DNA of 64,000 nt from Planctomycetota bacterium (GCA_016794035.1 JAEUHS010000016.1:6536-70535), one strand, 5' to 3'. Shown: positions 42,780 to 59,057, counted from the stretch's first letter. Numbers and translations: made by a program. The notes: generated from the sequence alone by a model not told the origin.

Positions 42780-42853
42780 GAAATGGCAGCATGCGGCCGC
42801 AACGCCGGCAAAGGAAGTGTGCGCGGCCGGCCGCCGGCTACAGTGCCGGCCGC

Positions 42854-43672
42854 ATGAGCACTCAGACCGGAACCGCCAACATGGCCGTCTTCTGCGACTT
42901 CGAGAACGTCGCGCTCGGCGTCGCCGACGCCAAGTACGCCAAGTTCGACATCGAGAAGGTGCTGGACCGGCTGCTGCTGAAGGGCAGCATCGTGCTGAAG
43001 AAGGCCTACTGCGACTGGGACCGCTACAAGGCCTGGAAGGGCGCCATGCACGAGGCGGCGTTCGAGCTGATCGAGATCCCGCACCGGCGCATGTCCGGCA
43101 AGAACTCGGCCGACATCCGGCTCGTCGTCGACGCGCTCGACTTCTGCCACACCAAGGATCACGTCGACACGTTCGTGATCATCAGCGGCGACTCGGACTT
43201 CTCGCCGCTGGTCAGCAAGCTGCGTGAGAACAACAAGAAGGTGGTCGGCGTCGGCGTCAAGAACTCGAGCAGCGACCTGCTGATCGCCAATTGCGACGAG
43301 TTCATCTACTACGACGACCTCGTGCGCGAGAAGCCGGCGCGCAAGGCGCCGACGCAGCGGGCACCAGCTCGCAGTCCCGGCGAGAAGGGCACCGCCAAAC
43401 GGGCCGGCGACGACCGCACCAACGAGGCGCTCGACCTGATCCTGGAGACGATCGAGGCGCTGATGAACGAGCGCGGCACCGACGAGCGCATCTGGGGCTC
43501 GATGATCAAGCAGGCGCTCAAGCGCCGGAAGCCCGGCTTCAGCGAGGGGTACTACGGCTTCCGCTCCTTCAACGAACTGCTCGAAGAGGCGGAGGAGCGC
43601 GGCTACCTGTTGCTGGAGCCGTCGGAGAACTCGGGCGCCTACGTGGTGCGCTTGCCGTCGCCCGGCAAGTGA
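42854..43672 (+). CDS. NYN (LabA-like PIN-fold nuclease) domain protein with C-terminal OST-HTH/LOTUS domain
   Basis: ORF 42791..43672 trimmed to ATG 42854. NYN motifs MAVFCDFENV, KNSADIRLVVDALD and FVIISGDSDFSPLVSKLRENNKKVVGVG. LOTUS region WGSMIKQALKRRKPGFSEGYYGFRSFNELLEEAEERGYL. Confidence 0.82.
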   Translation: MSTQTGTANMAVFCDFENVALGVADAKYAKFDIEKVLDRLLLKGSIVLKKAYCDWDRYKAWKGAMHEAAFELIEIPHRRMSGKNSADIRLVVDALDFCHTKDHVDTFVIISGDSDFSPLVSKLRENNKKVVGVGVKNSSSDLLIANCDEFIYYDDLVREKPARKAPTQRAPARSPGEKGTAKRAGDDRTNEALDLILETIEALMNERGTDERIWGSMIKQALKRRKPGFSEGYYGFRSFNELLEEAEERGYLLLEPSENSGAYVVRLPSPGK

Positions 43673-43673
43673 G

Positions 43674-44762
43674 TCATCGGCCCGTGTCGGTGGCGGCCGG
43701 CGCCGTGCCGACCTCGACGTCGAACACGCTCTCGCCGTCACCGGCCGGCCACGCGACCAGTCGATGGCCGTCGAGCGCGAGCTGCCAGACGCCGCCCTCG
43801 GCGGCGCGCGCGAACAGCCGCCACGACGCGAGCTGACGGTTCTGGCCTTCCTCGACGATCGTCTCGGCGGCCGGCGCCGCCGGCGGCCGCGGCGGCGGCG
43901 CTGCGACCGGGCGCTGCAGCCGCTCGCGCAGGTCGATGCGCGCCGACTGCGGCACGCGCAGGGCCCGCACCGCGCGGCGGTGGGGGCCGTCGCGATGCAG
44001 CGCGCCGATGTCGAGCAGCAGCGCCTCGGCCGTGCCGATGCCGGTCAGTACGCCGGTCGCCAGGTCGAGCTCGACGCAGCCGTCTTCGCTGACGCCGATG
44101 CCGAGCCGCTGCCCGGTCGCTTCCAGCGCGGCGACCAGGCGGCCGGTGCGATGGCGTTCGAAGAAGTGCGAGTCGGTCATCACCCACGGCTCGAACAGCA
44201 TGCCGGGGCCGACGCGCGGGCCGCCGTCGCCGAGCGCGTCGCCGCTGCTGCCGCCGAGCAGCATGCGTTCGCCCATCATCGCGCAGCCGGCGCTCGAGCC
44301 GGCGATCACGCCGCCGCGTTGCAGCAGCCGCCGCATCGCCAGCCACTCCGGCGTGTCTCTGCCGCCGGGCCGGTACCGATCGGTGATGCGCTGCTGATCG
44401 CCGCCGGTGAAGAACAGGCCGGTCGCCCGGTCGATCGCGGCGACGGTCGCCTCGGTCGTGGTCTCGCGCCGCACGACTTCGCACGGCAGGCCGGGCCACC
44501 AGGTCTGCAGCGCCGCGACCTTGCCGGTCGCCATGTCGTCCTGGTCGCCGCTGGCAGCGGTGACGACGACGATGCGCGGCGGTCGGTCGCGGCCCGCCAG
44601 CGCCAGGAAGCGGTCGAACACCGGCTGCTGGTCGTCGTCGAGTCCGCCGCCGATCAACAGCAGCGCACCCTCGGCCGCGCGCGGGAAGCGCGGCCGCGCG
44701 GTCCGGCAGCTCGCGGCCAGCACGGCGGCCAGCAGCAGCACGACCAGGCGCACGCGGCTCAT
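43674..44762 (-). CDS. cyanophycinase-like serine peptidase (S51), lipoprotein, with ~80-aa C-terminal extension
   Basis: This is the real 3' part of ORF 43674..45764. ATG 44762 overlaps the upstream TGA (ATGA). Lipobox LAASC. Motifs LLLIGGGLDDD, FTGGDQQRI, IAGSSAGCAMMG (nucleophile Ser) and TDSHFFERHRTGRL. Confidence 0.85.
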   Translation of the reverse strand: MSRVRLVVLLLAAVLAASCRTARPRFPRAAEGALLLIGGGLDDDQQPVFDRFLALAGRDRPPRIVVVTAASGDQDDMATGKVAALQTWWPGLPCEVVRRETTTEATVAAIDRATGLFFTGGDQQRITDRYRPGGRDTPEWLAMRRLLQRGGVIAGSSAGCAMMGERMLLGGSSGDALGDGGPRVGPGMLFEPWVMTDSHFFERHRTGRLVAALEATGQRLGIGVSEDGCVELDLATGVLTGIGTAEALLLDIGALHRDGPHRRAVRALRVPQSARIDLRERLQRPVAAPPPRPPAAPAAETIVEEGQNRQLASWRLFARAAEGGVWQLALDGHRLVAWPAGDGESVFDVEVGTAPAATDTGR

Positions 44763-45757
44763 CGCTCGAAGATCGCGACCTCGAAGCGGCCGCGGCTGTC
44801 GGCCAGCGCGCGATACATGCCGTCGGAGTTGTAGACGGCGAACGCGTTGCCGCCGGCGTCGACCGCGACCACGCCGCCGTCGTCCCGGGCCAGCGTGTGC
44901 ATCACCACCGCGGTCGCGGCGGTGGCGAGGCTCTCCCCGGCGAACTCCATGCGCGCCGCGATCGTACGCGCGACGGTGTGGCGGAGGAACTGCTCGCCGG
45001 TGCCGGTGCCGCTGACCGCGGCGTAGCCGTTGGCGTAGGTGCCTGCGCCGACGATCGGCGAGTCGCCGACGCGGCCGAACTGCTTGCCGGTCAGACCGCC
45101 GGTGCTGGTCGCCGCCGCGAGCCGACCCTGCCGATCGAGCGCGACGCAGCCGACGGTGCCGGAGTCGGCGCCGGGGACCTTGCGTTCGCGTTCTTGCAGC
45201 ACCTCGTCGAGCATGCGCCGCCGCGCCGGGGTCGTGAACCACTCGTTGGGCACGCGTTCGACCCCCATCGCGGTCGCGAACTGCTCGGCGCCGTCGCCCA
45301 TCAGCAGCACGTGCCGCGTGCGCTGCATCACGAGGCGCGCCAACGACACCGGGTTCTTGACGGTCTTCACGCCGGCGACGGCGCCGCACGCCATCGTGCT
45401 GCCGTCCATGATCGCGGCGTCGAGTTCGTGGCCGCCGTTCTCGTTGCACGCCGCGCCCTTGCCGGCGTTGAACAGCGGGTCCGCCTCGAACTGGCGCACG
45501 ACCGCCTCGCAGACGTCGAGCGCGGCGTCGCCGCGCGCCAGGCGGTCGCGGCCGACGGTCAGCGCGCGCTCCATCGCGTCGCGATAGGCCTGCAGGTCGG
45601 CGGCCGGCGCGTCGCGCTCGAGCGTGCCAGCACCGCCGTGGATCGCGATCGCCCACGCGCCCGGCGGCGCCAGCGGCGGTGGGTGGGAGCCGCCGGTGGA
45701 CACACAGCCGCCGGCGAACGGCAGCCAGAGGACGACGAGGCAGATCGGCGCGCGCAT
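44759..45757 (-). CDS. iaaA: isoaspartyl peptidase / L-asparaginase (Ntn hydrolase), lipoprotein
   Basis: This is the real 3' end of ORF 44759..50605, starting at ATG 45757. Lipobox PFAGGC. Motifs IAIHGGAG, NAGKGA, GTVGCVALD (autoprocessing Thr), TSTGG and VSGTGTGE. Confidence 0.88.
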   Translation of the reverse strand: MRAPICLVVLWLPFAGGCVSTGGSHPPPLAPPGAWAIAIHGGAGTLERDAPAADLQAYRDAMERALTVGRDRLARGDAALDVCEAVVRQFEADPLFNAGKGAACNENGGHELDAAIMDGSTMACGAVAGVKTVKNPVSLARLVMQRTRHVLLMGDGAEQFATAMGVERVPNEWFTTPARRRMLDEVLQERERKVPGADSGTVGCVALDRQGRLAAATSTGGLTGKQFGRVGDSPIVGAGTYANGYAAVSGTGTGEQFLRHTVARTIAARMEFAGESLATAATAVVMHTLARDDGGVVAVDAGGNAFAVYNSDGMYRALADSRGRFEVAIFER

Positions 45758-45801
45758 GGCGCATGGTGTAGCGGCGCGGCGGGTGCGATGCGATCCCGAG
45801 G

Positions 45802-48800
45802 TCACGTCGGGCGCGGGTCGACCTGCAGCAGGTCGTTGACGGCCGCCAGCAGGGCGCCGATCGCGAACGGCTTCTCCAGCAGGCGCAGCGGGCCGTCGGC
45901 GCCGGTGCCGAGGTCGCCGGCCTCGCCGAAGAAGCCCGACACGAACAGCACCGGCAGCCCCGGCCGCTCCGCGGTCAACGCCGCCGCCAGTTCGCGGCCG
46001 CCCAGGCCCGGCATCACGACGTCGGTGATCAGCAGGTCGATCGTGCCGCGATGCCGGCGCGCGACGGCGAGCGCGCTCTGGCCATCGCTGGCGAGCAGCA
46101 CGGTGTGGCCGGCGCGCTGCAGCGCGCGCTGCACGAGGCCGCGCACCGGCGCCTCGTCCTCGACCAGCAGGATCGTCGCGGCCGCCGTCGGCGTCGGTGC
46201 CGCCGGCGCGACGGGCTCCGCCCCGGCGGCGCCCGTCGTCGACGGCAGCCGGATCCAGGCGGTCGTGCCCACGCCCGGTTCGCTCTCGAGCCACGCGTCG
46301 CCGCCGCTCTGCCGGGCGATGCCGTACACGGTCGACAGGCCGAGCCCGGTGCCCTTGCCCGGTCCCTTGGTGGTGAAGAACGGGTCGAACGCGTGCGAGC
46401 GCACGGTCTCGTCCATGCCGGTGCCGGTGTCCCGCACCCACAGCAGCGCGTGCGGCGCCGAGTTCTCGGTGCCGGGGACGTTGGCGACGCCGATCGTCAG
46501 CGTGCCGCCGGCCGGCATCGCGTCGCGCGCATTGACGACCAGGTTCAGCAGCACCTGTTCCATCTGGCTGCGATCGACGCGCACCGGCACCGGCCCGCCG
46601 GGCCGTTCCTGGCGCAGCTCGATGCTGGCGCCGATCAGGCGCTGCAGCAGCTCGGCCAGTTCGTCGACGATGGCGGCGAGGTCCATGACGTGGGGCGCCA
46701 GCAGCTGCTGGCGGCTGAAGGCCAGCAGCTGGCGCGTCAGCCCAGCGGCCCGCGACGCTGCATCGAGGATGCCGCGGGTGTCGGCGCGTCGCGCGTCGTC
46801 GGACGGCAGCGACTCGTCCAGCGCTTCCGCGTAGCCGACCACCGCGGTCAGCAGGTTGTTGAAGTCGTGCGCGACGCCGCCGGCGAGCTTGCCGACGGCC
46901 TCCATCTTCTGCGCCTGCCGCAGCTGCTCCTCGAGCGACTTGCGCGCGGTGATGTCGGCGACCACGCCGACGTAGGCACCGCCGCCGTCGAGGCCGCGCA
47001 CCAGCGTGCTCGACACCAGCGCCCAGAACCGCGACCCGTCCCGGCGGTGCAGCTGCATCTCGTCGGCCTCGTGCTGTCCCCGGTCGGTGCACAGCGAGGC
47101 GAGGTCGGCCAGATGTGCGGCCGGCAGGTCTGCGTCCGTCGCGACGAGGCGCAGCATCTCCTCCGGCGAGTCGTAGCCGAACAGCTCGGCGAAGCGTTGA
47201 TTGGCATAGGTCAGGCCGTGACCGTGCACGCAGCGGAACAGGCCCTCGGCGACGTGGCGCTGGATCGACACCAGCAGCGACTCCCGTTGTTCGCGTTCGA
47301 TGACGACGCCCGTGAGCACCGCGGCCCGTTCGACCAGTTCGATCTGCGCGGCGGTCGGCTGCCGGGGTTCGCGGTGGTAGATCGCGAAGGTGCCGACGGG
47401 TCGGCCGGCCGGCGAACGGATCGGCACCGACCAGCACGCGCGCAGACCATGGCTGGCGGCCGCTTCCCGCGCGATGTCCCAGGCCGGGTCGCGGGCGATG
47501 TCCGCGGTGATCACCGTGCGATTGTCGTGGGCCGCCGTGCCGCAGGTCCCGACCGCGGGACCGATCTCGATGCCCTCGATCGCCGCGCTGTAGCCCGACG
47601 GCAGCGAGGGAGCGCAGGCGAGGTGCAGCCGGCGGCCCTGCAGCAGCAGGATCGAGCCCATGCCGCGGCCCATCTGGCCCTCGATGCCCCGCACGATCTC
47701 GGTGAACACGTCCTGCACCGGCCGCGCCGTGGCGACGAGTTCGAGGATGCGGGCCTGCCAGGCCAGCAGCCGCTCGATCGCGGCGCGCTCGCTGACGTCG
47801 CGCACGATGCCCAGCACCTCGTCGTCGGCGAGACGGATGAAACGCGCCTCGCGCACCCGGTGGTGATGCGGCGGACTCAGCGGATACTCGATCGCACCGG
47901 AGCGACCATGGGTGCAGGCGTCGTCGATGGCGCGCAGCATGCGGTCGGCGACGTCGGCCGGCACCAGCGCCTCGAGCGGCTGGTCGATCAGGCGCTCGCG
48001 CGGCGTCGGCAGCGGCACGCCTTCGGGCACCAGCGCGTCGAGCACGGTGCCGTCGCGGCGCATGCGGTAGACGACGTCCGGCAGCACGTTCAACAACGCC
48101 GCGCGCAGTCCCTCGCTGCGGAACCAGCCCTGTGCGTTCGCCTGCCGCTCGGCGAACAGGCTGCCGAACACCAGCGGCACCGCCAGCAGCATCAGTTCGA
48201 AGATCTGGATCGCGGTGTGGCGCTCGCGCAGCGACGCCAGCTGGAACGGGCCGATGGCGTGGCTCGACGCGACGGTGACCGTGACGGCCGCGAGGAACGA
48301 CGCGGTCGTGGTGCCGCGCAGGCCGAAGCGCCACGCGACCGCCAGCAGCAGCGGCACCAGCCCATAGAGCATCACGATCGAGGTCGCGTTGGCGGACAGC
48401 TGCGTCAGCACGCCCCACGCCATGCCCGATATCACCGCCATCAGCAGCGCACCCTCGAGCAGCGGTCGCGGCCGCAGGCGCGGGCGCCCGCCGGCGGACC
48501 AGGTCAGCACCAGTGGCACGACCGCCAGCACCCCGAGCGCGTTCATGCGCCACCAGCCGTAGTAGCCCGACGCGCGCGGGCCGACGCCCACCACCGTGCA
48601 GAAGATCGTCGACGTCACGACGCTGGCGAGCGGCGCGACCGCCGCCGTGAGCAGCAGCGCCAGCACGTCGCGCAGCCGGGCGAACGCCGCCTGGCAGCCA
48701 CACGCGCGCAGCACCAGCACGCCGACCACCGCCTCGGCGGCGCTGCCGAGCCCGGCGGTCACCGCCGCCGCGGGCAGATAGTCGTTCCACAGCCGCTGCG

Positions 48801-48990
48801 CGACGACCGCGGCGAAGACGACGGCCGCCGCCGGCAGGCCCAACAGCCAGGTGCCCGCGACCGCGACGCCGCTCGGCAGCCAGACGATGGCGTGGGTGAC
48901 GGCCGGTCCGTCGAGGGCGTGCAGCAGTCCTGCCGCGACGAACGCGAGCAGGAACGCCACGTAGCGCAGGGTTCGTGTCGCCGCGGGCAT
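45802..48990 (-). CDS. hybrid sensor histidine kinase/response regulator (MASE1-like membrane domain, PAS, GAF, PAS, HisKA, HATPase_c, REC)
   Basis: About 8 N-terminal TM helices ([17 protein letters not shown]). H-box [11 protein letters not shown]. ATPase motifs [16 protein letters not shown] and GTGLGLS. Receiver motifs [17 protein letters not shown] and LEKPF. Confidence 0.9.
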
Positions 48991-49028
48991 CGCCGCCCGA
49001 GGGTAGCGAGCGCCGCCGGGCGACGCAT

Positions 49029-49047
49029 GGGGGGGGGCGCCCCCGGG
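49029..49047. repeat. G/C-only element GGGGGGGGGCGCCCCCGGG (G9 run plus the 12-nt palindrome GGGGGCGCCCCC)
   Basis: Read directly. It lies between the Kelch-1 stop (49048) and the HK start (48990). Confidence 0.9.
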
Positions 49048-50397
49048 TCAGAGTCCGAGCGTGGTCACGACCGCGTTCGAGACGGTGGCGCCGGCCGGGT
49101 TGACGCCCGGATCGAGACACAGCGCCTGCGCGTAGATGCGATCGCCGACGGTGCCGATGGTCGGGTTGTAGGTGAACGACGCCATGCCACCGGCGCTGGT
49201 GACGTTGACGAACGCGTCGGGGAAGGCGTAGCCGGCGCAGCCCGGCAGGCCGACGAAGTCGAGCGCGAGGCCCGGCAACGCGGACAGGCCCAGCACGAAT
49301 GCCACGGCCTGCGGCGCGGTGTTCAGGTCGGTGAGCACCAGCCGGTAGTCGCCGCCGATGCGACCGGCGTCGGGCATGCTCAGCGCCGGCACGCCGTTCG
49401 AACCGGGGCAGCCGACACCGTAGGCACGCCAGCGGGCGCCGAACTCCCAGGTCTGGTTGGAGAGCGTGTTCGGACTCTGCGTGAAGCCGCCGAACTTCAC
49501 CACCTGTCGCCGCGTCGGCAGGAATGCGAGCGAATGGTCGCGCGCCGGCTGCGTCGCCGTCGGCTGCTGCGTCCACGCGGTGCCGTCGAACTCCCACGTG
49601 TCGGCGAAGATCGTGGTCGCATCCTGACCGCCGGTCAGCACGCAGACGCCGCGCAGGTCGTCGTAGACCATCTTCGCGGCGTTGCGCGGCGACGGCCTGG
49701 CGCCGGCGATCGGCACCGGGGTCCAGTTGACGCCGTCGTAGGTCCAGGTCGCGTCGAACAGCGTGCTGCTGAACGCGCCGCCGAACAGCACCGTCTTGCC
49801 GAGCGCCGCGTGGTAGCACATCGCCGGCCGGTCCAGCGCGCCGGGGTTCGCCGCGGTCGTGATCTGCACCCAGTTGACGCCGTCGTACTCCCAGGTCTTG
49901 TTCGACGGGATGCCGACGCCGGCGCCGACGCCGCCGTAGACGACGACGCGCGCGCGGCCGATGTCGTAGCAGATGCCGTTGCGGAACAGACCGCCGGGGT
50001 TCGTGGCGGGCGTTCGCAGGCTCCAGTCGACGCCGTCGAACTCCCAGGTCTCGCTGCTGGCGCCGCCGGCGGAGCCGCCGTAGAGCACGACCACGCCGCG
50101 CAGCAGGTCGTAGGTCATCTCGACCTCGATGCGGCCGCTCGGCGACGTCGCCGGGGCGAGCTGCGTCCAGTCGACGCCGTCGTAGACCCAGGTCTCGTTG
50201 CTCGGCGCCGGGTTGCCGGTGCCGCCGAACAGCAGCGCGCCGCCGACGCCGGGCGCGAACGTCATCGCCGCGCCGCGCCGCGCCGTCGGCGAGGTCGCGG
50301 GGGACTGTTGTTCCCATTGCGTGCGCGCCAGCAGCGGGGCCGCCGGGGCGGCGACCGAGACGGAGAGCAGGAACAGGGTGGTTGCGGTTCGAGGCAT
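49048..50397 (-). CDS. secreted Kelch-repeat beta-propeller protein with unassigned Cys-containing C-terminal module (paralog 1)
   Basis: ORF 49048..50508 trimmed to ATG 50397, with signal peptide MPRTATTLFLLSVSVAAPAAPLLA. Six blades with the recurring pattern hhhFGG...(E/D)TWE(F/Y)DG..W. The C-terminal 124 aa contain GCPGSNGVPAL, GLPGCAGYAF and QALCLDPGVNPAG. Confidence 0.85.
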   Translation of the reverse strand: MPRTATTLFLLSVSVAAPAAPLLARTQWEQQSPATSPTARRGAAMTFAPGVGGALLFGGTGNPAPSNETWVYDGVDWTQLAPATSPSGRIEVEMTYDLLRGVVVLYGGSAGGASSETWEFDGVDWSLRTPATNPGGLFRNGICYDIGRARVVVYGGVGAGVGIPSNKTWEYDGVNWVQITTAANPGALDRPAMCYHAALGKTVLFGGAFSSTLFDATWTYDGVNWTPVPIAGARPSPRNAAKMVYDDLRGVCVLTGGQDATTIFADTWEFDGTAWTQQPTATQPARDHSLAFLPTRRQVVKFGGFTQSPNTLSNQTWEFGARWRAYGVGCPGSNGVPALSMPDAGRIGGDYRLVLTDLNTAPQAVAFVLGLSALPGLALDFVGLPGCAGYAFPDAFVNVTSAGGMASFTYNPTIGTVGDRIYAQALCLDPGVNPAGATVSNAVVTTLGL

Positions 50398-50636
50398 CGG
50401 CGTCGGGTCGGCTGTGGGCACGATGCCACAGGCGACATTGGCGCGCGATCGGCCGGCGGAATCCGCGGAAACGGGCCGGCCCGTCGCCGTTGCGTTTCGT
50501 GGTTGCACTCCGTCCGTGAGGACCCGGATCCCGAGGCATGGAACGTCGTTGCGACCCAGCCTCTCGCCGCTGAGCTGCGGCGCGCAGCGCCGTCAGCTCC
50601 AGCATGGGCGGGCGTAGCCGCCACCCCGCACGTTCC

Positions 50637-52028
50637 CTAGTAGCCGAGCACGATCGTCGCCGCGTTCGACACGGTCAGCCCGGCGCTGTTGACGGTCGGA
50701 TCGACGCCGATGCCCTGCAGGTAGTAGGCGTCGCCGAGCTGGCTCGGGATCTGCGGCAGATCGTAGGTCCAGGACGCGGTGCCATTGACGACCGGCAGCG
50801 TCACCAGCGCGTCGGCGCTGGTGTAGGCGCGACAGCCCGGCATGCCGAGGCTGGTCAGCAGCATCGGCAGGCTGCCGAGCGGCCATTGCGTGCGGCTGAG
50901 CCCGACCGCCATCGCGGCGAGCGTGCTGCCGGGCGGCAGGTTGACGATGTCGACGCGCAGCTGGGTGCCGAGCACGGGCAGCGCGCCGAGCACCAGCTGC
51001 GGCGTGCCGGCGGTGCCGGCGCAGCCCATGCCGAACGCCTGGAACTGGGCGCCGAACTGCTGGGTGTCGTCGCGCAGGCTGTTGTTGGCCGTCACACCGC
51101 CGAACGCGGTGATGCGGTCGTGCACGAAGTCGTGCGCCATCGCGAAGTCCGAGCGCGGCGGATACATGCCGCCGTAGAGCGGATCGAGCTGGCGCCAGGT
51201 CGTGCCGTCGAACTCCCAGCTGTCGTTCTGGATCACCTGCGTCACCGGATCGCGGCCGCCGGTCAGCATCACGACGTTGCGGCTGAGGATCGCCTCCATG
51301 CGCGCACCCACCCGGGCCGACGGCTTGGGCCCGGTGATCGCCACCAGTTGCCAGTCGAGGCCGTCGTAGGTCCAGGTCTCGTCGTGGGCGTTGCCGCTGT
51401 TGTCGGCGCCACCGAACATCACGGTCTTGCCGATCGCGGGCAGGTAGGCCATCGCCGCGTCGGTCAGGCCCGGCGGCGAGTTGATCGTGGTCACCACATG
51501 CCAGTCGCCGCCGTAGTACTCCCACGTCTCCGCGAGCGCGGACGTCGGCTGGTAGAGGTTGAAGCGTCCGCCATAGAGCACGGTGACCTGGCGGCCGAGG
51601 TCGTAGGCCATCATGTGCCGCGCGCGGCCGAGCGGTGTGCTGGTCGGCGCCTGCTGTTGCCACGCGGTCCCGTTCCAGGCCCAGGTGTCGTCGGCGGCGA
51701 ACGGCGACGGGCTGCCGCTGGCGTCGATGCCGCCGTAGAGCAGGATCTCGCCGGTGATGGAGTTGGCCGCCATCGCCGACCGCTGCCGCGGCGACGGCGA
51801 GACCGTCGGCTGCAGCTGCGTCCAGGTGCCGTTGGCGAAGCTCCACAGCTCGTTGCCGGCGTTGCCGCCGAACATCAGCATTCGGTCCTGCAGCACGTCG
51901 AAGGCCATCATCGCGCCCTGCCGGGCGGACGGGGTCGTCGGGGTCGTCACCGGGCCCCACTGCGCGGCGACGGCGGTGGTGGTCGCGAGAGCGGCCAGAG
52001 CCGCACGGAGGACGGAGTTCGAGTTCAT
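50637..52028 (-). CDS. secreted Kelch-repeat beta-propeller protein (paralog 2)
   Basis: ORF 50637..52073 trimmed to ATG 52028, with signal peptide MNSNSVLRAALAALATTTAVAAQ. Same blade pattern. The C-terminal 132 aa contain GCAGTAGTPQL, GMPGCRAYTS and GIGVDPTVNSAG. Confidence 0.85.
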   Translation of the reverse strand: MNSNSVLRAALAALATTTAVAAQWGPVTTPTTPSARQGAMMAFDVLQDRMLMFGGNAGNELWSFANGTWTQLQPTVSPSPRQRSAMAANSITGEILLYGGIDASGSPSPFAADDTWAWNGTAWQQQAPTSTPLGRARHMMAYDLGRQVTVLYGGRFNLYQPTSALAETWEYYGGDWHVVTTINSPPGLTDAAMAYLPAIGKTVMFGGADNSGNAHDETWTYDGLDWQLVAITGPKPSARVGARMEAILSRNVVMLTGGRDPVTQVIQNDSWEFDGTTWRQLDPLYGGMYPPRSDFAMAHDFVHDRITAFGGVTANNSLRDDTQQFGAQFQAFGMGCAGTAGTPQLVLGALPVLGTQLRVDIVNLPPGSTLAAMAVGLSRTQWPLGSLPMLLTSLGMPGCRAYTSADALVTLPVVNGTASWTYDLPQIPSQLGDAYYLQGIGVDPTVNSAGLTVSNAATIVLGY

Positions 52029-52058
52029 GGGTCTTCGAGTCTGCGGGGTGATACGAAA

Positions 52059-52090
52059 CGGAGAGTGAGCCACCGGGCGCTCACTCTCCG
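52059..52090 (-). terminator. perfect 12-bp hairpin followed by UUU, 47 nt after the Kelch-3 stop and 30 nt before the Kelch-2 ATG
   Basis: Minus strand reads CGGAGAGTGAGC-gcccggtg-GCTCACTCTCCG-ttt. It could be an intrinsic terminator or a processing/attenuation site. Confidence 0.4.
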
Positions 52091-52136
52091 CGTGGCCGCG
52101 CAGCGCGGCCGGGGGGTTCCGAGCGACCGACCGGCC

Positions 52137-53516
52137 TCAGAGGCCGATGGTGCCGGAGATCGCCTGCGTGATCGTGAAGTCGAACGCGTTGACGCCCGGG
52201 TCGTAGCACAGCGCCTGGCCCCAGAACTGGCTGCCGATGGTGCCGCCGACGGATGGCCAGGTCCAGCTGGCGTCGCCGAGGCTGCCGGTGATGCCGACCG
52301 AGGCGTCTGGCGTGATGTAGGCGTAGCAGCCCGGCATGCCGGGGAACGGATCGAGCAGGAAGCCGCCCGGGATCTGCGTGAAGCCGAACACCAGCACGCC
52401 CGCGTTGAACGTCGTGTTCAGGTTCGACGCGGTGACGACCCAGGGCTGGCCGAGGCGCGGCGACTGGTTGACCGACAGGTGCGGCAGGCCGTTGCTGCCG
52501 GGGCAGGCCGAGCCGAAGGTGCCGGTCTCCCATTCCCAGGTGTCGTTGTAGTAGGTGAAGGTCGCGAAACTGACGCCGCCAAACACCACCATGCGGTTGC
52601 TGGCGGGCATGAAGCCCATCATGCCATTGAGGCGCGTCCCGGTGATCGAAGTGGCGACCTGGGTCCAAGTCGTGCCATCGAACTCCCAGGTGTCGCTGAA
52701 GTAGGTCTGGCCGGTCATGTCGGTTGGGTCCGCACCACCGGTCAGCACGCAGACGCCACGGATGCTGTCATAGGCCATCATGGCCCCGGTGCGTGCTGCG
52801 GGCTTGGCACCGGCGATGGTCAGAGCGGACCAGGCGTGCGTCGCGCCATCGTAGGTCCAGGTGGTGTTGTTCCACGATCCCTGCACGTCGATGCCCCCGA
52901 ACAGCACGGTCTTGCCGATGCCGGCATGGAAGCACATCGAAGGGCGTTCGAGCGGGCCCGGGTTCGTGGCCGGCGTGATGGCGGTCTCGGTCCAGCCGGT
53001 GCCATTCCACTCGAAGGTCTTGTCCGAGTCGATCGGGAAGAAGCTGTCCGGCAGGCCGCCGTAGACGATCGTCAGGTTGTGGACCGAGTCGTGACTCATG
53101 CCGTGCAGGCCAAGGCCGCCCGGGGTCGTGCCGACGATGACCGGCTGAGTCCAGGTGGTGCCATCGAACACCCACGTCTCGTCCTTCGACGGGCCGCCGA
53201 AGAAGCTCGAACTCAGGCCACCGTACATCACGAACACGCCGCCGTTGATGTCGTACTCCATCTCGGCGCCGGCACGGCCGCCGGGGCCGCTGGCCGCGGT
53301 GGTCCAGGTCGTGCCATCGTAGGTCCACGCCTGGCTGCTGGGCGCGAAGCCACCGGTGTCGCCGCCGAACATCAGCAGGTTGCCGGTCGGGCCGGTGGCG
53401 AATGCTGCTGCGGCGGTGGTCGGAGGCGAAGCCCCCGGGGTTGCCTGCTGCCACTGGGCCGACAGGGAAGAAACGGAGATGGAGAGGGCGATGGCCCCGA
53501 GGAGCGTAGTTTTCAT
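52137..53516 (-). CDS. secreted Kelch-repeat beta-propeller protein (paralog 3)
   Basis: This is the real 3' part of ORF 52137..54446, starting at ATG 53516, with signal peptide MKTTLLGAIALSISVSSLSAQ. Same blade pattern. The C-terminal 126 aa contain ACPGSNGLPHL, GMPGCYAYIT and QALCYDPGVNAFD. Confidence 0.85.
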   Translation of the reverse strand: MKTTLLGAIALSISVSSLSAQWQQATPGASPPTTAAAAFATGPTGNLLMFGGDTGGFAPSSQAWTYDGTTWTTAASGPGGRAGAEMEYDINGGVFVMYGGLSSSFFGGPSKDETWVFDGTTWTQPVIVGTTPGGLGLHGMSHDSVHNLTIVYGGLPDSFFPIDSDKTFEWNGTGWTETAITPATNPGPLERPSMCFHAGIGKTVLFGGIDVQGSWNNTTWTYDGATHAWSALTIAGAKPAARTGAMMAYDSIRGVCVLTGGADPTDMTGQTYFSDTWEFDGTTWTQVATSITGTRLNGMMGFMPASNRMVVFGGVSFATFTYYNDTWEWETGTFGSACPGSNGLPHLSVNQSPRLGQPWVVTASNLNTTFNAGVLVFGFTQIPGGFLLDPFPGMPGCYAYITPDASVGITGSLGDASWTWPSVGGTIGSQFWGQALCYDPGVNAFDFTITQAISGTIGL

Positions 53517-53533
53517 GGCAGGAATGTCCTGCC
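53517..53533 (-). promoter_or_regulatory. hairpin abutting the Kelch-3 start codon that contains the only SD-like AGGA
   Basis: Minus strand reads GGCAGGA-cat-TCCTGCC-ATG (7-bp stem, or 6 bp with a 5-nt loop). Confidence 0.3.
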
Positions 53534-53593
53534 GGTTAGGAGCCGTGCACCGGCCGATCGGCCGGAAGAATCCGGCACGACGCCCCAGAAAAC

Positions 53594-56500
53594 TCAGTTC
53601 TTGAACCGCATCGCGCGGGACCCGATGCGCCAGACCAGGCCCAGCTGGTTGGACACGAACAGCTCGGGGCTGCCGTCGCCGTCGCTGTCGGGCACCGGCA
53701 GCAGGCAGCTGCCGAACCCCTGCACGGACGGGTGCGGCAGCAGCGACGAGGCGTCCAGTCCCTGCGCGGTCCAGAACTCGATCGCGCCCGTCGATGCCGT
53801 GCCGCCCAGCGGCGCGCCGATCGCCACCAGGGGCGGCCCCGTCGCACGCCGATAGGCGGCCACCGCGAAGCCGAACTCGATGCCGGGCTTGTGGCCGCGG
53901 ATCTCGCCCAGCCTGGCGCCGGTGCGGCCGGAGAACAGCTGCACCTGGTCGACGTTGCTCGTCGTGCCATCGCCGACCGCCGAGATCACCACGTCGCCGC
54001 GGCCGTCGCCGTCGACGTCGCCGATGCCGGCCACCGCCATGCCGAAGCCACGGTCGGGTGACGGGTCGCTCCAGGACTGCAGCACGGCGCCGGTGCCGGT
54101 GGAGTAGAGCCGCACCAGACCCGGCGCGCCGCCGACACGCCCCCCGTAGTTGCCGCCGACCAGCAGGTCGTCGCGTCCGTCGCCGTCGGCGTCGCCGGCG
54201 TTGGCGATGCAGGCGCCGAACCAGACACCGGGCACGTCGTTGCGCAGCGTGGACAGCACCCGGCGCGTGCGGCCGGAGAAGATGTCGACGCGGCCCTGCG
54301 GCGCGGTGTTGCGCACCAGCGCCGCGGTGGCGACCGCGAAGTCGGCGGCGCCATCCCCGTCGACGTCGCCGAGGCCGGCCACGGCGACGCCGAAACCCGG
54401 TTCGCCCTCGAGCTGGGCGAGGCGCTGCCGCGTGCGGCCCGACCACACCTCGGCGAGGCCGAACTCCGCGTCCCGCGTGCCGGCCGGTGCGCCGATCAGC
54501 CAGTCGCAGGCCCCGTCGCCGTCGACGTCGCCGATCCCGGCGAGGCTGTGGCCGAAGATCTGTCCGTCACCGTCGCCTTCGATCGAGTCGACGAGTTCCG
54601 CGGTGACGCCGTCGACCAGGAACACACGGCCCGGCGCCTCGTACGGGTCGCGGGTCGCGGCGCTGATCAGCACGTCGTCGATGCCGTCGCCGGTGCGGTC
54701 GTCGACGCGGCTCAACGCGTGACCGAACATCAGCGCGGGCGCCAGGTCGGCGGGCGGCATGGCGAGTCGCAGCGGGACTCCGGTCCAGGCGCCGCCGGGC
54801 AGCTGCAGCGAGACGTTCTCGACCATCAGCGTCAGCGTCGGTGCCAGGTAGGGCAGCAGCCAGGCGGCGCCCGCCGCGAGCAGGCGCAGCCGCAGGTCCT
54901 CGGCGCGGTGGAGCGGCAGGTGCGCGACCAGCAGCGGCACCGCGAGCAGCGCATTGCCGGCCGCCGTGTCGAGCAGGCGCTGTGCCCTGCCGGCGGCGCG
55001 CATCTGCAGTCGCACGTCGCGCACGAGGCGCAGCAGGAACACGAAGTTCGTCGCGATCGTGGGTGCGAAGCTGCGGATCGGCATCTCGCCGCCGAGGAAC
55101 GCCCTGCCGGTCGCGTCGGCCCCGGTGCGTGCCAGGCCCTCCCGGTAGAGTTCGCTCAGCCCGCCGATGCGCAGGATCTCGAGCAGGTCGGCGACCGTAC
55201 CGCGGGAACCTTGGCGACCCAGATCCTGGTCCAACACCGCCAGGACCTCGTGCGCGTAGCTGCCGAGGTCCCGCTGCTGCAGCGCGACACGCGCCCGATC
55301 GAGGCGGAACCGGGACACCTCGGGCCACCCGTGCACGAGGCTGTCGAGCACGCGAGCCGCGACCGCGAGGTCGCCGCGACGCTGCGCCAGCTGGGCGATC
55401 CGGTGCAGCGGGGTCGGGTCCGACGGGTCCCGCCGCGCCAGTTCGCGGTAGCGGTCGGCGAGGTCGCCGTCGACCTCGGTCGCGGCGCGCAGGTCGAGTT
55501 CCACCCGCTGCCGCAGCAGGGCGACGCTGTCGTCGTCGCCGACGCCGGCGAGCCAGCGGCGGGTCGCCTGCAGGTCGCCGATCGCCAGCGCGGCATCCGC
55601 CAGCGCGAGGCGGAGGATCGCGGCGTCCGGGAACGACCGCTGGGCGCGCTGCAGGTGCGCATAGGCGAGGTCCGGCAGCCCGTCGGCCAGCAGGCGCATG
55701 CCGAGCGTGGCGCTGATCAGCGGTTCGTCGCGTTCGAGCGGCGAGATCCGTTCCCAGGCGCGCTCGCACAACCGGAAGTCCCCGAGCAGGAAACCCAGCA
55801 GGCCGGCGGTGGCGCGGTCTTCGTCGTCCGCCAGCGCCTCTTCGCGCAGCATCGGATCCGGATCCCGGCTGCCGAGGGCGAGGCTGCGTGCCGCTTCGAC
55901 CGTGAAGTCGCCCAGGCCCGCACAGAGCCGGCGGAACTCGTCGCTGGCGAGGGCGGTGTGCAGCTTCTCCGGCGCACCGACGGACAAGCGCCGCAGCCAC
56001 AGCGACAGCTGCGCCACGTCGCGTTCGAGCCGGGCGGCACGGTTGTCCGGATCGAGCGCGACGGCCTGGTCGTACTCGCCGATGGCGGTGAGCAGCGGCG
56101 CCGTCGTCGGCCCGCCCGCCGGGGCGGCCGGGTCGGTGGTGCTGCCCTCGTCGATGCCGCGCTGGGTCAGGCGCCGGCTCTCGATCGAGAAGATCTGCTG
56201 CCGCGCCGCCTGCACGTGGGCGCGCGCCGTGTCCTTCGAGCGGCCGGACGCCTGCACCCGGTCGAGGATGGGCACCATCGCGGCGGCGACCAGCGCGGCG
56301 CCCAGGGAGCCTGCGAGCAGGTGGTTGCGGTGGCGGCGCAGGAACTTGCCGGCGCGGCGCAGGGCGCCGACCGGGCGGGCCTGGATCGGCTGCAGGTCGA
56401 GCAGGCGCTGCAGGTCGTCGGCGAGCTCGCCCGCGCTCGTGTAGCGCCGGTCGGGGTCGACCTCCATCGCGTGCTGCACGATCGTCTCGAGGTCGCGCGG

Positions 56501-57469
56501 GCAGCCCGGCGCGGCCCGCCGCAGCGGCACCAGCCGGCCCTCCTCGATGCGCCGCAGCTGGTCCGTGGTCGAGCGACCGGCGAACGGCGTCGACAGGGTC
56601 AGGCACTCGTACAGCGTGACGCCGAGGCCGTAGACGTCGCACGCCGGGCCGATCGTCGCGTCGCCGCGCAGTTGCTCCGGCGACGAGTAGACCGGTGTGC
56701 CGGCGAAGCTGCCGGTGCGCGAGATCTCGCGCGACGTCAGCCGCACGAGGCCGAAGTCGACCAGCACCGGCTGGCCGCTGCGCCGCAGCAGGATGTTGGC
56801 GGGCTTCACGTCGCGGTGGATCAGGCCGGCGGCGTGCACCGCGCCGAGCGCGCCGGCGATCTTCGACGCCAACCGGACGAAGAACTGCGTCAGGTTGCGG
56901 GCGCCGAGTTCGGCCAGGGGCAGTCCGAGCCGCTCGGCCACCTGCGCGAGCGTCGGGATCGTGCCCTTGGCGTCGCGATGCGCGCGCAGGTGGTCGAGCA
57001 ACTGCTGCAGGCTCGGTCCGTCGACGAACTCCATCTCGAACGCGAGCACCTCGCCCTCGTCGACGATGCGGTGGATCGCGACGATGTGGTCGTGTTCGAC
57101 CTTGGCCAGCGCGCGGGCCTCGGCGAGGAAACGCGGCCGGCTGCGCGGCGACAGGCCGATCGAGTGCGGCAGCACCTTCAGCGCCACCTCGCGATCGAGC
57201 GACGTCTGCCGCGCGAGGTAGACCGTGCCCATGCCGCCGCGGCCGATCTCGCGCACGATCTCGTAGCCCTGCAGCGACGGCTTCGGCGTGTGCTTGCGGC
57301 CGGCGACCCCGAACGCCAGTCCGAGCGCTTCGTCGAGGCGGTGCGCGACCGTCGGATGGCGCGCCGCGGACCCCGGCAGGTCGGGCTCTTCGCCGTCGAG
57401 CATCTGCGTCAGCAGGTCGTCGAGCAGATCGGCGAACTCCGGGTCCTCCTCGGCGGGCGCGGACGTCAC
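53594..57469 (-). CDS. Hanks-type Ser/Thr protein kinase, single TM, TPR-like helical region and FG-GAP/VCBS (integrin-alpha-like) repeats
   Basis: This is the real 3' part of ORF 53594..58042. GTG 57469 overlaps the sigma-factor TGA (GTGA). Kinase motifs GRGGMGTVYLA, VALKVL, HRDVKPANILL, DFGL and GTPVYSSPEQ. TM helix LLAGSLGAALVAAAMVPIL. Six to seven repeats of the type GDVDGDGxxDhhhG. Confidence 0.9.
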   Translation of the reverse strand: MTSAPAEEDPEFADLLDDLLTQMLDGEEPDLPGSAARHPTVAHRLDEALGLAFGVAGRKHTPKPSLQGYEIVREIGRGGMGTVYLARQTSLDREVALKVLPHSIGLSPRSRPRFLAEARALAKVEHDHIVAIHRIVDEGEVLAFEMEFVDGPSLQQLLDHLRAHRDAKGTIPTLAQVAERLGLPLAELGARNLTQFFVRLASKIAGALGAVHAAGLIHRDVKPANILLRRSGQPVLVDFGLVRLTSREISRTGSFAGTPVYSSPEQLRGDATIGPACDVYGLGVTLYECLTLSTPFAGRSTTDQLRRIEEGRLVPLRRAAPGCPRDLETIVQHAMEVDPDRRYTSAGELADDLQRLLDLQPIQARPVGALRRAGKFLRRHRNHLLAGSLGAALVAAAMVPILDRVQASGRSKDTARAHVQAARQQIFSIESRRLTQRGIDEGSTTDPAAPAGGPTTAPLLTAIGEYDQAVALDPDNRAARLERDVAQLSLWLRRLSVGAPEKLHTALASDEFRRLCAGLGDFTVEAARSLALGSRDPDPMLREEALADDEDRATAGLLGFLLGDFRLCERAWERISPLERDEPLISATLGMRLLADGLPDLAYAHLQRAQRSFPDAAILRLALADAALAIGDLQATRRWLAGVGDDDSVALLRQRVELDLRAATEVDGDLADRYRELARRDPSDPTPLHRIAQLAQRRGDLAVAARVLDSLVHGWPEVSRFRLDRARVALQQRDLGSYAHEVLAVLDQDLGRQGSRGTVADLLEILRIGGLSELYREGLARTGADATGRAFLGGEMPIRSFAPTIATNFVFLLRLVRDVRLQMRAAGRAQRLLDTAAGNALLAVPLLVAHLPLHRAEDLRLRLLAAGAAWLLPYLAPTLTLMVENVSLQLPGGAWTGVPLRLAMPPADLAPALMFGHALSRVDDRTGDGIDDVLISAATRDPYEAPGRVFLVDGVTAELVDSIEGDGDGQIFGHSLAGIGDVDGDGACDWLIGAPAGTRDAEFGLAEVWSGRTRQRLAQLEGEPGFGVAVAGLGDVDGDGAADFAVATAALVRNTAPQGRVDIFSGRTRRVLSTLRNDVPGVWFGACIANAGDADGDGRDDLLVGGNYGGRVGGAPGLVRLYSTGTGAVLQSWSDPSPDRGFGMAVAGIGDVDGDGRGDVVISAVGDGTTSNVDQVQLFSGRTGARLGEIRGHKPGIEFGFAVAAYRRATGPPLVAIGAPLGGTASTGAIEFWTAQGLDASSLLPHPSVQGFGSCLLPVPDSDGDGSPELFVSNQLGLVWRIGSRAMRFKN

Positions 57470-58092
57470 GCTGGATCTCGCGGTTCGTGGGCGTCGGCGC
57501 CGAGGCGCCGCTGCAGCTCGCGGCGGTAGTCGCGCATGCCGCGCACCAGCCGGTCCTTGAACGTCGACAGCGGCAGTCCGAGGCGTTCGGCCGAGTCCTT
57601 CAGCGGCACCTCCTCGAACACGCGCAGGCGCACGACGTCGCGCAGCGGCTCGTCGAGCGCGGCGAGCGCGTGCTCGAGCACCCGGGCGCGTTCGAGATGG
57701 GACGCGGTGCGGCTCGGCGTCGTCGACTGCGGCGGCAGGTAGCCGTCGACCGTGTCGGCGCCCCCGAGGTCCGAGAAGCGCGCCAGCGGCCGGCTGCCGC
57801 CGCGCTTGGTGCGCAGCACGCCGCGCACCGCGGCCCGCACCCGGTTGTGGGCGATGCCGAGCAGCCATGCACGGTACTTGCTCAGGCTGCTCCACTCGTG
57901 CTGCTGGCGATCGCGCCACGCCATCCACAGCGTCTCCTGCCAGATGTCCTCGACCGAGATCTCGAGCCGCACCTCGGCGCCGATCCAGCTGCCGATCACG
58001 ACGAAGATCGTCGCCGCGTCGAGGCTGTCGACGAGGCGACACCAGGTCGTCGGGTCGAGGTGGGGTGCCGGGGACTCGGGAGCGGGCCGCAT
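57466..58092 (-). CDS. ECF-type RNA polymerase sigma factor (sigma-70 regions 2 and 4)
   Basis: ORF 57466..58158 trimmed to ATG 58092. Region 2: VEDIWQETLWMAWRDRQQ. Region 4: LRDVVRLRVFEEVPLKDSAERLGLPLSTFKDRLVRGMRDYR. No anti-sigma gene follows; a kinase does. Confidence 0.85.
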   Translation of the reverse strand: MRPAPESPAPHLDPTTWCRLVDSLDAATIFVVIGSWIGAEVRLEISVEDIWQETLWMAWRDRQQHEWSSLSKYRAWLLGIAHNRVRAAVRGVLRTKRGGSRPLARFSDLGGADTVDGYLPPQSTTPSRTASHLERARVLEHALAALDEPLRDVVRLRVFEEVPLKDSAERLGLPLSTFKDRLVRGMRDYRRELQRRLGADAHEPRDPA

Positions 58093-58280
58093 GCGTGCAG
58101 CAGCAAGACTACTGCGGAACCCCGCCGCCGGGTCGTCCGGGCCGGAACCCGGCCGCACCGGTCCGGCACCGACGGCCGGGAAACGCCGGCGCGAACGGCG
58201 TCCCGGACGCCGGCCGAAACCGCGACCACCGACGCGGCGAGGTCCATCGGCGCACGGCGGATGGTATACGTGACGACTCC

Positions 58281-59057
58281 ATGATCCTGCGCGCCGTCTC
58301 CGTCGTGGTGTTCTCCGTCCTGCTGTCAGGTTGTGCGGCCGGCCCCGCGCCGGCCGGCCCCGCCGCGGCCGATGTGCCGGCGCCGGCTGCCGATGCGGCG
58401 AAGGTCGCCGACCCGGTCGCCAAGGCCGCCGAGGCCAGGCAGCAGAAGCAGGACGAGCGCAAGAAGCAGGCGAAGGAGCTGCGTGCCAAGCAGCGCGAGC
58501 TCGCGCACGCCACGGTCGAACAACAGGTCGAGGCGATCGAGCGCCGCAGCCGCATGCAGGCGGTCGACGCGGCGCTGGAGCGCTCCGCGGCCGATCTCGA
58601 GGCGGCGCGCCGCGAGCTGGAGGTGTTCCTGAAGGACGTCAAGCCGCGCGAACTGGACGATCGGCGTCTGTCGCTCGACGGCGCCACCTACCGCGCCGAG
58701 CACAGCAAGGACGAACTCGGCGAGCTGACGGCGATGTACGAGGCCGACGAGTTCGCGCGCACGACCAAGGAGCTGGTGCTCAAGCGCGGTCGTCGCGACA
58801 TGGAGATGGCCGATCGCCGGCTCGCGCTCGAGACGCGCGAGTTCGCCCACTTCGAGCAGTTCGAGCTGCCGAAGCGCGAGCGCGAGCTGCGCCAGAAGCT
58901 GGCCGACGCCGAGCTGGCGCGCAAGAAGGCCGAGGCCGAGGCCGAGAAGGCGCGGCTCGAGCTGGAGCTGGCGTCGCAGAAGAGGACCGAGCGGCAGAGC
59001 GACCTCGCCGAGGAGATCCGCGAGCTGCAGGAGGCGCTGGCCAAGGACGCGCCGTGA
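58281..59057 (+). CDS. coiled-coil lipoprotein of unknown function
   Basis: This is the real 3' part of ORF 57867..59057, starting at ATG 58281. Lipobox LLSGC. The sequence is rich in charged heptad-like segments ([22 protein letters not shown]...). Confidence 0.7.

Follow-up and report, generated by a model that had tools for sequence, protein, structure and literature searches.

The subject of this study is a 64,000-nucleotide stretch of DNA from a Planctomycetota bacterium (GCA_016794035.1 JAEUHS010000016.1:6536-70535), here called the window, in which three consecutive genes encode proteins with Kelch-type propellers that we name KelA, KelB and KelC. KelA and KelB belong to a conserved four-gene unit in which they follow an extracytoplasmic function (ECF) sigma factor and a receptor Ser/Thr kinase, and we propose that in an uncultured Planctomycetota lineage this unit serves as a signal-to-secreted-binder cassette, a reading to which we give an even chance. 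To our knowledge, pairs of an ECF sigma factor and a Ser/Thr kinase are abundant in Planctomycetota, and their targets are largely unknown. The unit described here supplies such a pair with a candidate promoter and a candidate regulon, both of which can be tested directly. What is new is the linkage of an ECF sigma factor/kinase module to exported propeller proteins, and what was unexpected is that these proteins end in a domain of a very large family and that the propeller of KelA is replaced in the manner of a cassette.

In the scheme that we propose, the TPR and FG-GAP region of the kinase would pick up an extracytoplasmic cue, and the kinase would activate the co-translated sigma factor by phosphorylation, as in EcfP/PknT and EcfK/PknS. 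The sigma factor would then read promoters of the form YYGGCC-N15/16-NCKCCT in front of kelA-kelB, kelC and dispersed paralogues. The Kelch products would be exported by Sec and cleaved before an invariant Gln-Trp pair, which would close the propeller. The propeller would set the binding specificity of proteins that act as nonenzymatic binders, while the C-terminal domain would dock or retain them on an envelope component common to thousands of other exported proteins of the lineage.

The order ECF sigma factor-kinase-KelA-KelB occurs in at least 17 genomes, that is, in the window and in 16 other distinct bins, all of them from uncultured Planctomycetota (loci L001, L004 to L007, L009, L011, L013 to L015, L017 to L020, L024 and L032). 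The unit is kept across loci between which the identity of the kinase drops to 42% and whose flanks are unrelated, with glycosyltransferases in L004 and glucose-6-phosphate dehydrogenase in L005. The original prediction, which was made from the sequence of the window alone, had tied the whole Kelch array to the sigma factor and kinase. The tie is upheld by the gene order in at least 17 genomes with differing flanks and by a family-specific upstream motif, but KelC lies outside the unit and is usually a dispersed singleton. Since KelB usually overlaps KelA or starts no more than 17 nt after it (a gap of -4 to 17 nt in 11 of 19 pairs; 108 nt in the window), KelA and KelB look like one operon. 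Apart from its match to the general sigma factor model (Table 1), the sigma protein has the Pfam domains Sigma70_r2 and r4_2 only; among the NCBIfam subfamilies it comes closest to TIGR02984 (Sig-70_plancto1), with a score of 72 where the cut-off is 184. A hydropathy scan of the kinase gave a single hydrophobic segment at residues 383-403, with the TPR and FG-GAP repeats after it. Because this single membrane helix separates the repeats from the kinase domain, they are predicted to lie outside the cytoplasm and to face the periplasm.

Alignment by eye of the regions upstream of the Kelch genes gave the motif YYGGCC-N15/16-NCKCCT, often with an A-rich run just before its second block and an ATTCC-like stretch before its first. 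The counts that follow, like the neighbor-joining tree discussed below, cover 61 family genes from 38 loci. A strict scan of 1.29 Mb on both strands, with spacers of 13 to 17 nt allowed, returned 105 matches in total, of which 25 fall within 90 nt upstream of Kelch starts (about 5.5 kb of space), which makes the motif about 50-fold enriched there. The spacer of every one of these 25 is 15 or 16 nt long, and the matches end 12 to 56 nt before the start codon. When one mismatch is allowed, the motif precedes 35 of the 47 KelA-type, KelC-type, singleton and tandem genes (14/16 first-position genes, 2/2 third-position genes, 14/19 singletons and 5/10 tandem genes without a kinase) and 1 of the 14 second-position (KelB) genes, while chance would give about 0.05 matches per 100-nt window. 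The strict motif is absent before eight other open reading frames (ORFs) that carry the C-terminal module, and the non-Kelch matches that we inspected (e.g., winRC 1941, repeated in L039) fall inside ORFs. Consensus promoter and terminator scans of positions 43000-59000 gave no match. The motif looks like a sigma factor promoter, since its internal spacing is fixed while its distance to the start codon varies; that the adjacent ECF sigma factor reads it is offered as a proposal only, and control of the Kelch genes by this sigma factor is plausible on these sequence grounds. Two other ideas about the upstream regions were abandoned. A sigma-54 reading of the motif was rejected, as the distance from GG to GC varies and 15 to 16 nt separate the two conserved blocks, and GGAAC boxes just after the stop codons of KelA and KelB were dropped as ECF -35 elements, as their position is not conserved in other loci.

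Several ECF groups with adjacent kinases are known, among them ECF43 and the planctomycetal groups ECF59-62 (PMC7826278), and direct phosphorylation of the sigma factor by an adjacent Hanks-type kinase has been established experimentally for EcfP/PknT and EcfK/PknS (PMC13147305; PMC7826278). The pair in the window resembles these ECF43 systems of Vibrio parahaemolyticus (EcfP/PknT) and Xanthomonas citri (EcfK/PknS) in that the sigma gene overlaps the gene of a single-pass receptor kinase with a periplasmic repeat domain, in that no anti-sigma gene is visible and in that the candidate targets adjoin. It differs from them in its kinase ectodomain, which consists of TPR and FG-GAP repeats, and in its linked genes, which encode Kelch propellers, whereas those of the ECF43 systems belong to a type VI secretion system or to polymyxin resistance. 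The sigma-2.2 region, in which the ECF43 members have replaced DxxD by uncharged residues with a conserved Thr (QTTA consensus; PMC13147305), has kept its acidic residues here, and judged by its sequence, the sigma factor is not a typical ECF43 member. Two further observations concern these sigma factors. The kinase-linked ones usually have Ser or Thr at the first Asp position of DxxD and share a conserved RxKRGG linker. Their genes are preceded by boxes of the types TAGTCT, TAGCCT or TATCCT (positions 58093-58130 in the window; also in L001, L004 and L005), which resemble a housekeeping -10 element.

The Kelch-type blades that had been recognized in the three proteins were borne out by a hidden Markov model search, in which PF24681 scored 114.7, 94.2 and 75.9 bits against a cut-off of 50 and PF13415 was likewise above its Pfam cut-off. 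KelA was modeled with AlphaFold2 from 62 homologues (pLDDT 90.2, pTM 0.81); the model begins with a low-confidence helix at residues 4-19, taken as the signal peptide, and continues with 24 strands that form six four-stranded blades at residues 20-331 of the predicted structure. A ten-strand beta-sandwich at residues 334-459 starts two residues past the last propeller strand. The Gln-Trp pair that had been noted at the predicted mature N terminus is invariant in the 62 aligned family members. By the order of the strands, the one at residues 20-25, which this pair begins, would complete blade 6 and so close it in the model, and this would be why Gln-Trp is conserved right after the predicted cleavage site. 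The prediction of signal peptides on all three proteins also stood, on the basis of hydropathy and the conserved A|QW site. Together with two invariant cysteines in the C-terminal module, these features suggest that the Kelch proteins are exported.

The propeller of KelA exists in a second form. An alternative allele occurs in seven contigs, three of which were read (L041 to L043) and come from three sequencing runs or samples. Compared with the window, these contigs have 6 mismatches in the approximately 3.3 kb upstream of KelA (kinase gene and spacer), 3 in the signal peptide codons 1-20 and 1 in the C-terminal module, and they are identical in the KelA-KelB spacer and in KelB, whereas the propeller codons 21-331 (52524-53456) have only 60 to 77% nucleotide identity and 58.6% protein identity. 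Altogether, 316 mismatches lie within the KelA gene. The window allele was seen in four other samples, some of them from the same run series, at 99.96 to 100% identity. The differences between the alleles peak in the B-C and D-A loops on one face of the propeller, with 45% and 55% identity compared to 68% in the strands. Across species, the KelA propeller and the KelA module have different nearest relatives. No mosaic pattern was found in the KelB homologues, whose divergence is even along their length, or in one close KelC variant with four residue differences. Gene conversion from a paralogue was rejected as the origin of the alternative allele, the closest of the top 120 matches in the KelA search being only 67% identical. 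Because the exchange is domain precise in an otherwise clonal background, it points to recombination and to selection on the binding surface of KelA and suggests that the ligand of KelA is under diversifying or frequency-dependent selection. A replacement of this kind signals that the selection is strong, and it provides a natural handle for finding the ligand.

A bolder extension of the cassette proposal, which we hold only tentatively and would not expect to prove right in full, is that KelA/KelB and the KelC-type paralogues form a polymorphic extracellular recognition system that is switched on by the ECF sigma factor and kinase. The exchangeable propeller would then be specific for a biotic partner (kin, prey, predator or phage), and the C-terminal domain would define a lineage-wide surface-docking or secretion system without a counterpart in cultured bacteria. 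TraA of Myxococcus is a polymorphic recognition protein with a swappable variable domain, and the likeness to KelA is that one domain of a surface or exported protein diverges between close strains while its flanks are conserved. This comparison serves as a lead rather than a test; there is no homology, and cell-cell recognition is not evidenced here.

The same genes could also be placed on the input side of the pathway. The Kelch pair would in that case be periplasmic co-sensors that present a ligand to the FG-GAP/TPR ectodomain of the kinase or that hold the kinase inactive. We think this unlikely, even though in at least 17 genomes KelA-KelB are the next genes behind the kinase, the ectodomain and the Kelch proteins are both predicted to lie outside the cytoplasm, the C-terminal module of the Kelch proteins is also fused to FG-GAP propellers and KelA and KelB lie so close together as to suggest a stoichiometric pair. 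A propeller allele of 59% identity is swapped in while the kinase remains nearly unchanged, which is hard to fit with a co-evolved interface. In addition, KelA has a promoter-like motif of its own, which it has in common with singleton paralogues far from any kinase, and four loci carry the pair without an adjacent kinase.

In the cassette proposal, the C-terminal module would keep the binders at the envelope. The module is about 125 aa long (124 to 132 aa in the window), begins with GxGCxGxxGxP and is joined to the propeller without a linker. When modeled alone (pLDDT 95.3), it is an Ig-like beta-sandwich. Profile searches of the module in Pfam, NCBIfam and PDB sequences gave no match, a Foldseek search of PDB and BFVD gave only generic Ig, FN3 and nanobody matches, and a literature search for the Kelch family and its C-terminal module found no description. 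The size of the module family came to light when 1.84 billion cluster representatives were searched exhaustively with its profile, which returned 11,790 of them at an E value of ≤0.001 and 4,753 at ≤1e-10, compared to only 16 matches in a word-indexed search. In nearly all of the best 150 of the 11,790, the module sits at the extreme C terminus of proteins of 130 to 790 aa. Its partners are domains of exported type and include Kelch propellers of six to more than twelve blades, FG-GAP, BNR/Ycf48-like and RCC1 propellers, C-type lectin, DUF642 and LamG domains, and a sulfatase. Proteins that consist of a signal peptide and the module alone are common (many entries of 150 to 175 aa), and about nine further module-bearing ORFs lie in the approximately 580 kb of flanks. 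On the strength of these sequence searches, the module is a very large domain family without prior description, which the original prediction had missed. It is among the larger undescribed domain families and is carried by a large part of the proteins that an uncultured lineage exports, and identifying its binding target would show how these cells organize their surface.

An Ig-like beta-sandwich at the extreme C terminus of many unrelated exported proteins in one lineage is also what characterizes the C-terminal domains of type IX secretion, a Bacteroidota-centered system. The module might thus be a cleavable sorting signal of a dedicated secretion or attachment system of that kind, with the three Kelch proteins as cargoes among many, and the unrelated N-terminal domains of its carriers and the further copies in the flanks would suit this. 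We nevertheless regard such a role as doubtful. TIGR04183 and TIGR04131, the models of type IX sorting domains, had no match at an E value of ≤10 in the full proteins or in 26 isolated modules, nor did any other sorting-domain model match. Compared to the type IX domains, the module is longer, has its own N-terminal signature and two invariant cysteines, lacks a linker and also occurs alone, and a tag without cargo makes little sense. With only two residues after the last propeller strand, there is no room for a flexible linker, and the full-length model is rigid, as its pTM indicates. The stand-alone forms and the missing linker speak for retention of the module in the mature protein.

The original prediction could assign no enzymatic function to the Kelch proteins, and we looked for catalytic signatures and could identify none. 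The nearest solved folds to the KelA model in a Foldseek search, a check that had been suggested at the outset, are the Kelch domains of LZTR1 and KLHDC2, which bind peptides or proteins (17% identity; E values of 1e-14 to 1e-17; target-normalized TM-scores of 0.76 to 0.80). Given the lack of a conserved catalytic signature and closest folds that are binding Kelch domains, we read the Kelch proteins as exported, nonenzymatic binding proteins. They share a six-bladed Kelch propeller with KLHDC2 and LZTR1, which are cytosolic ubiquitin ligase adaptors of eukaryotes, whereas KelA, KelB and KelC lack BTB and BACK domains and combine a signal peptide with an Ig-like domain at the C terminus. That they are instead exported enzymes is very improbable. 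Two enzyme types come into question, both of them Kelch propellers that act outside the cytoplasm: a sugar mutarotase like NanM/YjhT, the periplasmic sialic acid mutarotase that is likewise a bacterial exported six-bladed propeller, and a copper radical oxidase like galactose oxidase or GlxA (AA5), in which an Ig-like domain likewise comes C-terminal to a secreted Kelch propeller. The fold search also lists a fungal AA5 oxidase, at rank 48, behind best matches that are nonenzymatic binding domains. The mutarotase model TIGR03547 (YjhT) has a cut-off of 256.35 and scored at best 14.5 (KelA), with no match in KelB or KelC, and NanM lacks a C-terminal module. The oxidases have seven blades, copper ligands and DUF1929; the proteins in the window have six blades, PF09118 had no match in them even at an E value of ≤10, no His is invariant or nearly invariant in the 62 family members, and the three nearly invariant Tyr residues of the family sit in beta-strands of the KelA model.

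Several observations weigh against the cassette proposal itself. Four loci (L002, L008, L012 and L016) have KelA-KelB without an adjacent sigma factor or kinase; L012 still has the upstream motif, and L002 and L016 have it at one mismatch, while L002 and L008 have, in the same syntenic slot, Kel, isoaspartyl peptidase, S51 protein, Kel, Kel, and lack the sigma factor, the kinase and the histidine kinase there. In the sigma factor of the window and in 15 orthologues, the sigma-2.2 motif is still acidic, with the form (S/T/Q/A)VEDxWQE or QPEDxWQE (SVEDxWQE in the window), and since the ECF43 members have lost this acidic motif, the mechanism of phosphorylation may differ from theirs. The strict motif is missing directly before the sigma genes, so no autoregulation ties the sigma factor to it, and the sigma factor is probably not autoregulated. 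The motif also lacks the AAC/CGT pattern that is typical of many ECF promoters. The excess of allelic differences in the loops of KelA is weak evidence for selection, as loops usually vary more than strands. Finally, a docking or retention role for the module, as a part of the mature protein, is held with low confidence, as it is drawn only from the position of the module, its partners and the lack of a linker.

The layout of the array was re-derived and agreed with the original prediction in all respects: three consecutive minus-strand genes of 449, 463 and 459 aa in ascending coordinates, separated by spacers of 108 and 239 bp (Table 1). The start of KelC is backed by a 99% identical 449-aa protein from another sample, for which the same start was called. 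The window has a G+C content of 72 to 75%, and the blades are visible in the DNA itself as repeats spaced by about 150 nt. A fourth Kelch copy was sought within the window and not found. The three proteins have pairwise identities of 35 to 46%, and the view that they do not stem from a recent duplication is supported by the neighbor-joining tree, which places them in three separate lineages of old, diverged paralogues; the array therefore joins three old lineages and is not a recent tandem duplication. The first gene after the kinase has a QWxQ N terminus (KelA type). The second always has a mature N terminus of QWG(P), and these genes form one clade in the tree (KelB type). The third gene of the window and its L006 orthologue group with paralogues that are singletons elsewhere (KelC type). 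KelA has at least 593 homologues at an E value of ≤1e-5, which are about 450 to 465 aa long, all annotated as hypothetical and all from Planctomycetota metagenome bins, and KelB has at least 321 at ≤1e-30. Double-length Kelch proteins (P0209, P0261, P0271 and many matches of 740 to 790 aa), apparently with two propellers, bear the same C-terminal module, and one match is labeled Candidatus Baltobacteraceae, outside the Planctomycetota.

Table 1. Features of the Kelch locus, in window coordinates and in descending order of position
Feature	Position	Strand	Properties
ECF-type sigma factor	57466-58092	-	208 aa; stop overlaps kinase start; TIGR02937 score of 45.0 against a cut-off of 42.9
Receptor Ser/Thr kinase	53594-57469	-	1291 aa; Hanks type; Pkinase PF00069 at residues 69-345 (E = 6.5e-40); TPR and FG-GAP matches
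Promoter-like motif of KelA	53538-53565	-	CCGGCC-N16-GCTCCT; ends 21 nt before the KelA start codon
KelA	52137-53516	-	459 aa; signal peptide, residues 1-20; propeller, residues 21-331 (nt 52524-53456); C-terminal module, residues 334-459 (nt 52140-52517)
Hairpin in KelA-KelB spacer	52058-52091	-	13 bp, GC rich, followed by GUUUCGU; in the 108-nt spacer, whose fold has -53.5 kcal/mol (z = -2.8)
KelB	50637-52028	-	463 aa; mature N terminus QWGP; C-terminal module, residues 332-463 (nt 50640-51035)
Palindrome in KelB-KelC spacer	50572-50599	-	GC rich, imperfect; contigs from three samples end or start there, others end within about 40 nt
Promoter-like motif of KelC	50430-50456	-	CCGGCC-N15-TCGCCT; ends 32 nt before the KelC start codon; same motif at the orthologous third gene of L006
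KelC	49048-50397	-	449 aa; mature N terminus QWEQ; C-terminal module, residues 326-449 (nt 49051-49422)
Hybrid histidine kinase	45802-48990	-	MASE1-PAS-GAF-PAS-HisKA-HATPase-receiver (Pfam)
Isoaspartyl peptidase	44759-45757	-	Asparaginase_2 (E = 3e-100); lipoprotein-type signal peptide
S51 cyanophycinase-like protein	43674-44762	-	Peptidase_S51 above Pfam cut-off; lipoprotein-type signal peptide

The spacers had been described as rich in hairpins. This is true of the spacer between KelA and KelB, but the 239-bp spacer between KelB and KelC folds no better than shuffled sequences (z = -0.68); the spacer between the kinase and KelA also folds better than shuffled sequence (z = -3.4). The hairpin between KelA and KelB was not called in the consensus terminator scan, and it may act as an attenuator or stabilizer. 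That contigs break at the palindrome between KelB and KelC is probably due to the hairpin, through its effect on assembly or coverage; a check for a dispersed repeat showed that its sequence is unique in the window. A 7-bp stem-loop, GGCAGGA CAT TCCTGCC, lies at 53517-53533 directly before the start codon of KelA and is nearly unchanged in L007; it might affect the initiation of KelA translation.

The neighbors named in the original prediction, namely, the ECF sigma factor, the Ser/Thr kinase, the hybrid histidine kinase and the Asparaginase_2 and Peptidase_S51 proteins, were all identified by Pfam and NCBIfam. The one-strand cluster of positions 43674-58092 that they were said to form is mostly local synteny, as the histidine kinase and the cyanophycin-type pair are limited to few genomes. 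The histidine kinase follows the Kelch genes in five genomes only (the window, L001, L006, L007 and L018). The isoaspartyl peptidase adjoins them only in the close relatives L001, L002 and L006 to L008, accompanied by the S51 protein in all of them but L001, and it also lies a few kilobases upstream of the sigma gene in L004 and L014. Although these neighbors are local and all genomes come from one poorly sampled lineage, it is hardly credible that the adjacency within the four-gene unit is mere inherited synteny and the motif a general promoter of the lineage, given that the four genes keep their order even in loci with different flanks on both sides and a kinase of only 42 to 50% identity, and that the motif is concentrated at Kelch genes, has its inspected other matches inside ORFs and is replaced by a TAGTCT-like -10 box at the sigma genes.

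Against the cyanophycinase model TIGR02069, with a cut-off of 126.6, the S51 protein scores 110.6 (E = 8.4e-32). The lipoprotein-type signal peptides of the isoaspartyl peptidase and the S51 protein end in FAGGC and LAASC, and as far as such sequence features can tell, this suggests that beta-aspartyl peptides or cyanophycin would be degraded outside the cytoplasm. Beyond the S51 gene, an NYN/OST-HTH ribonuclease-like gene on the plus strand (42791-43672) forms a conserved downstream boundary of the locus in the window, L001 and L002.

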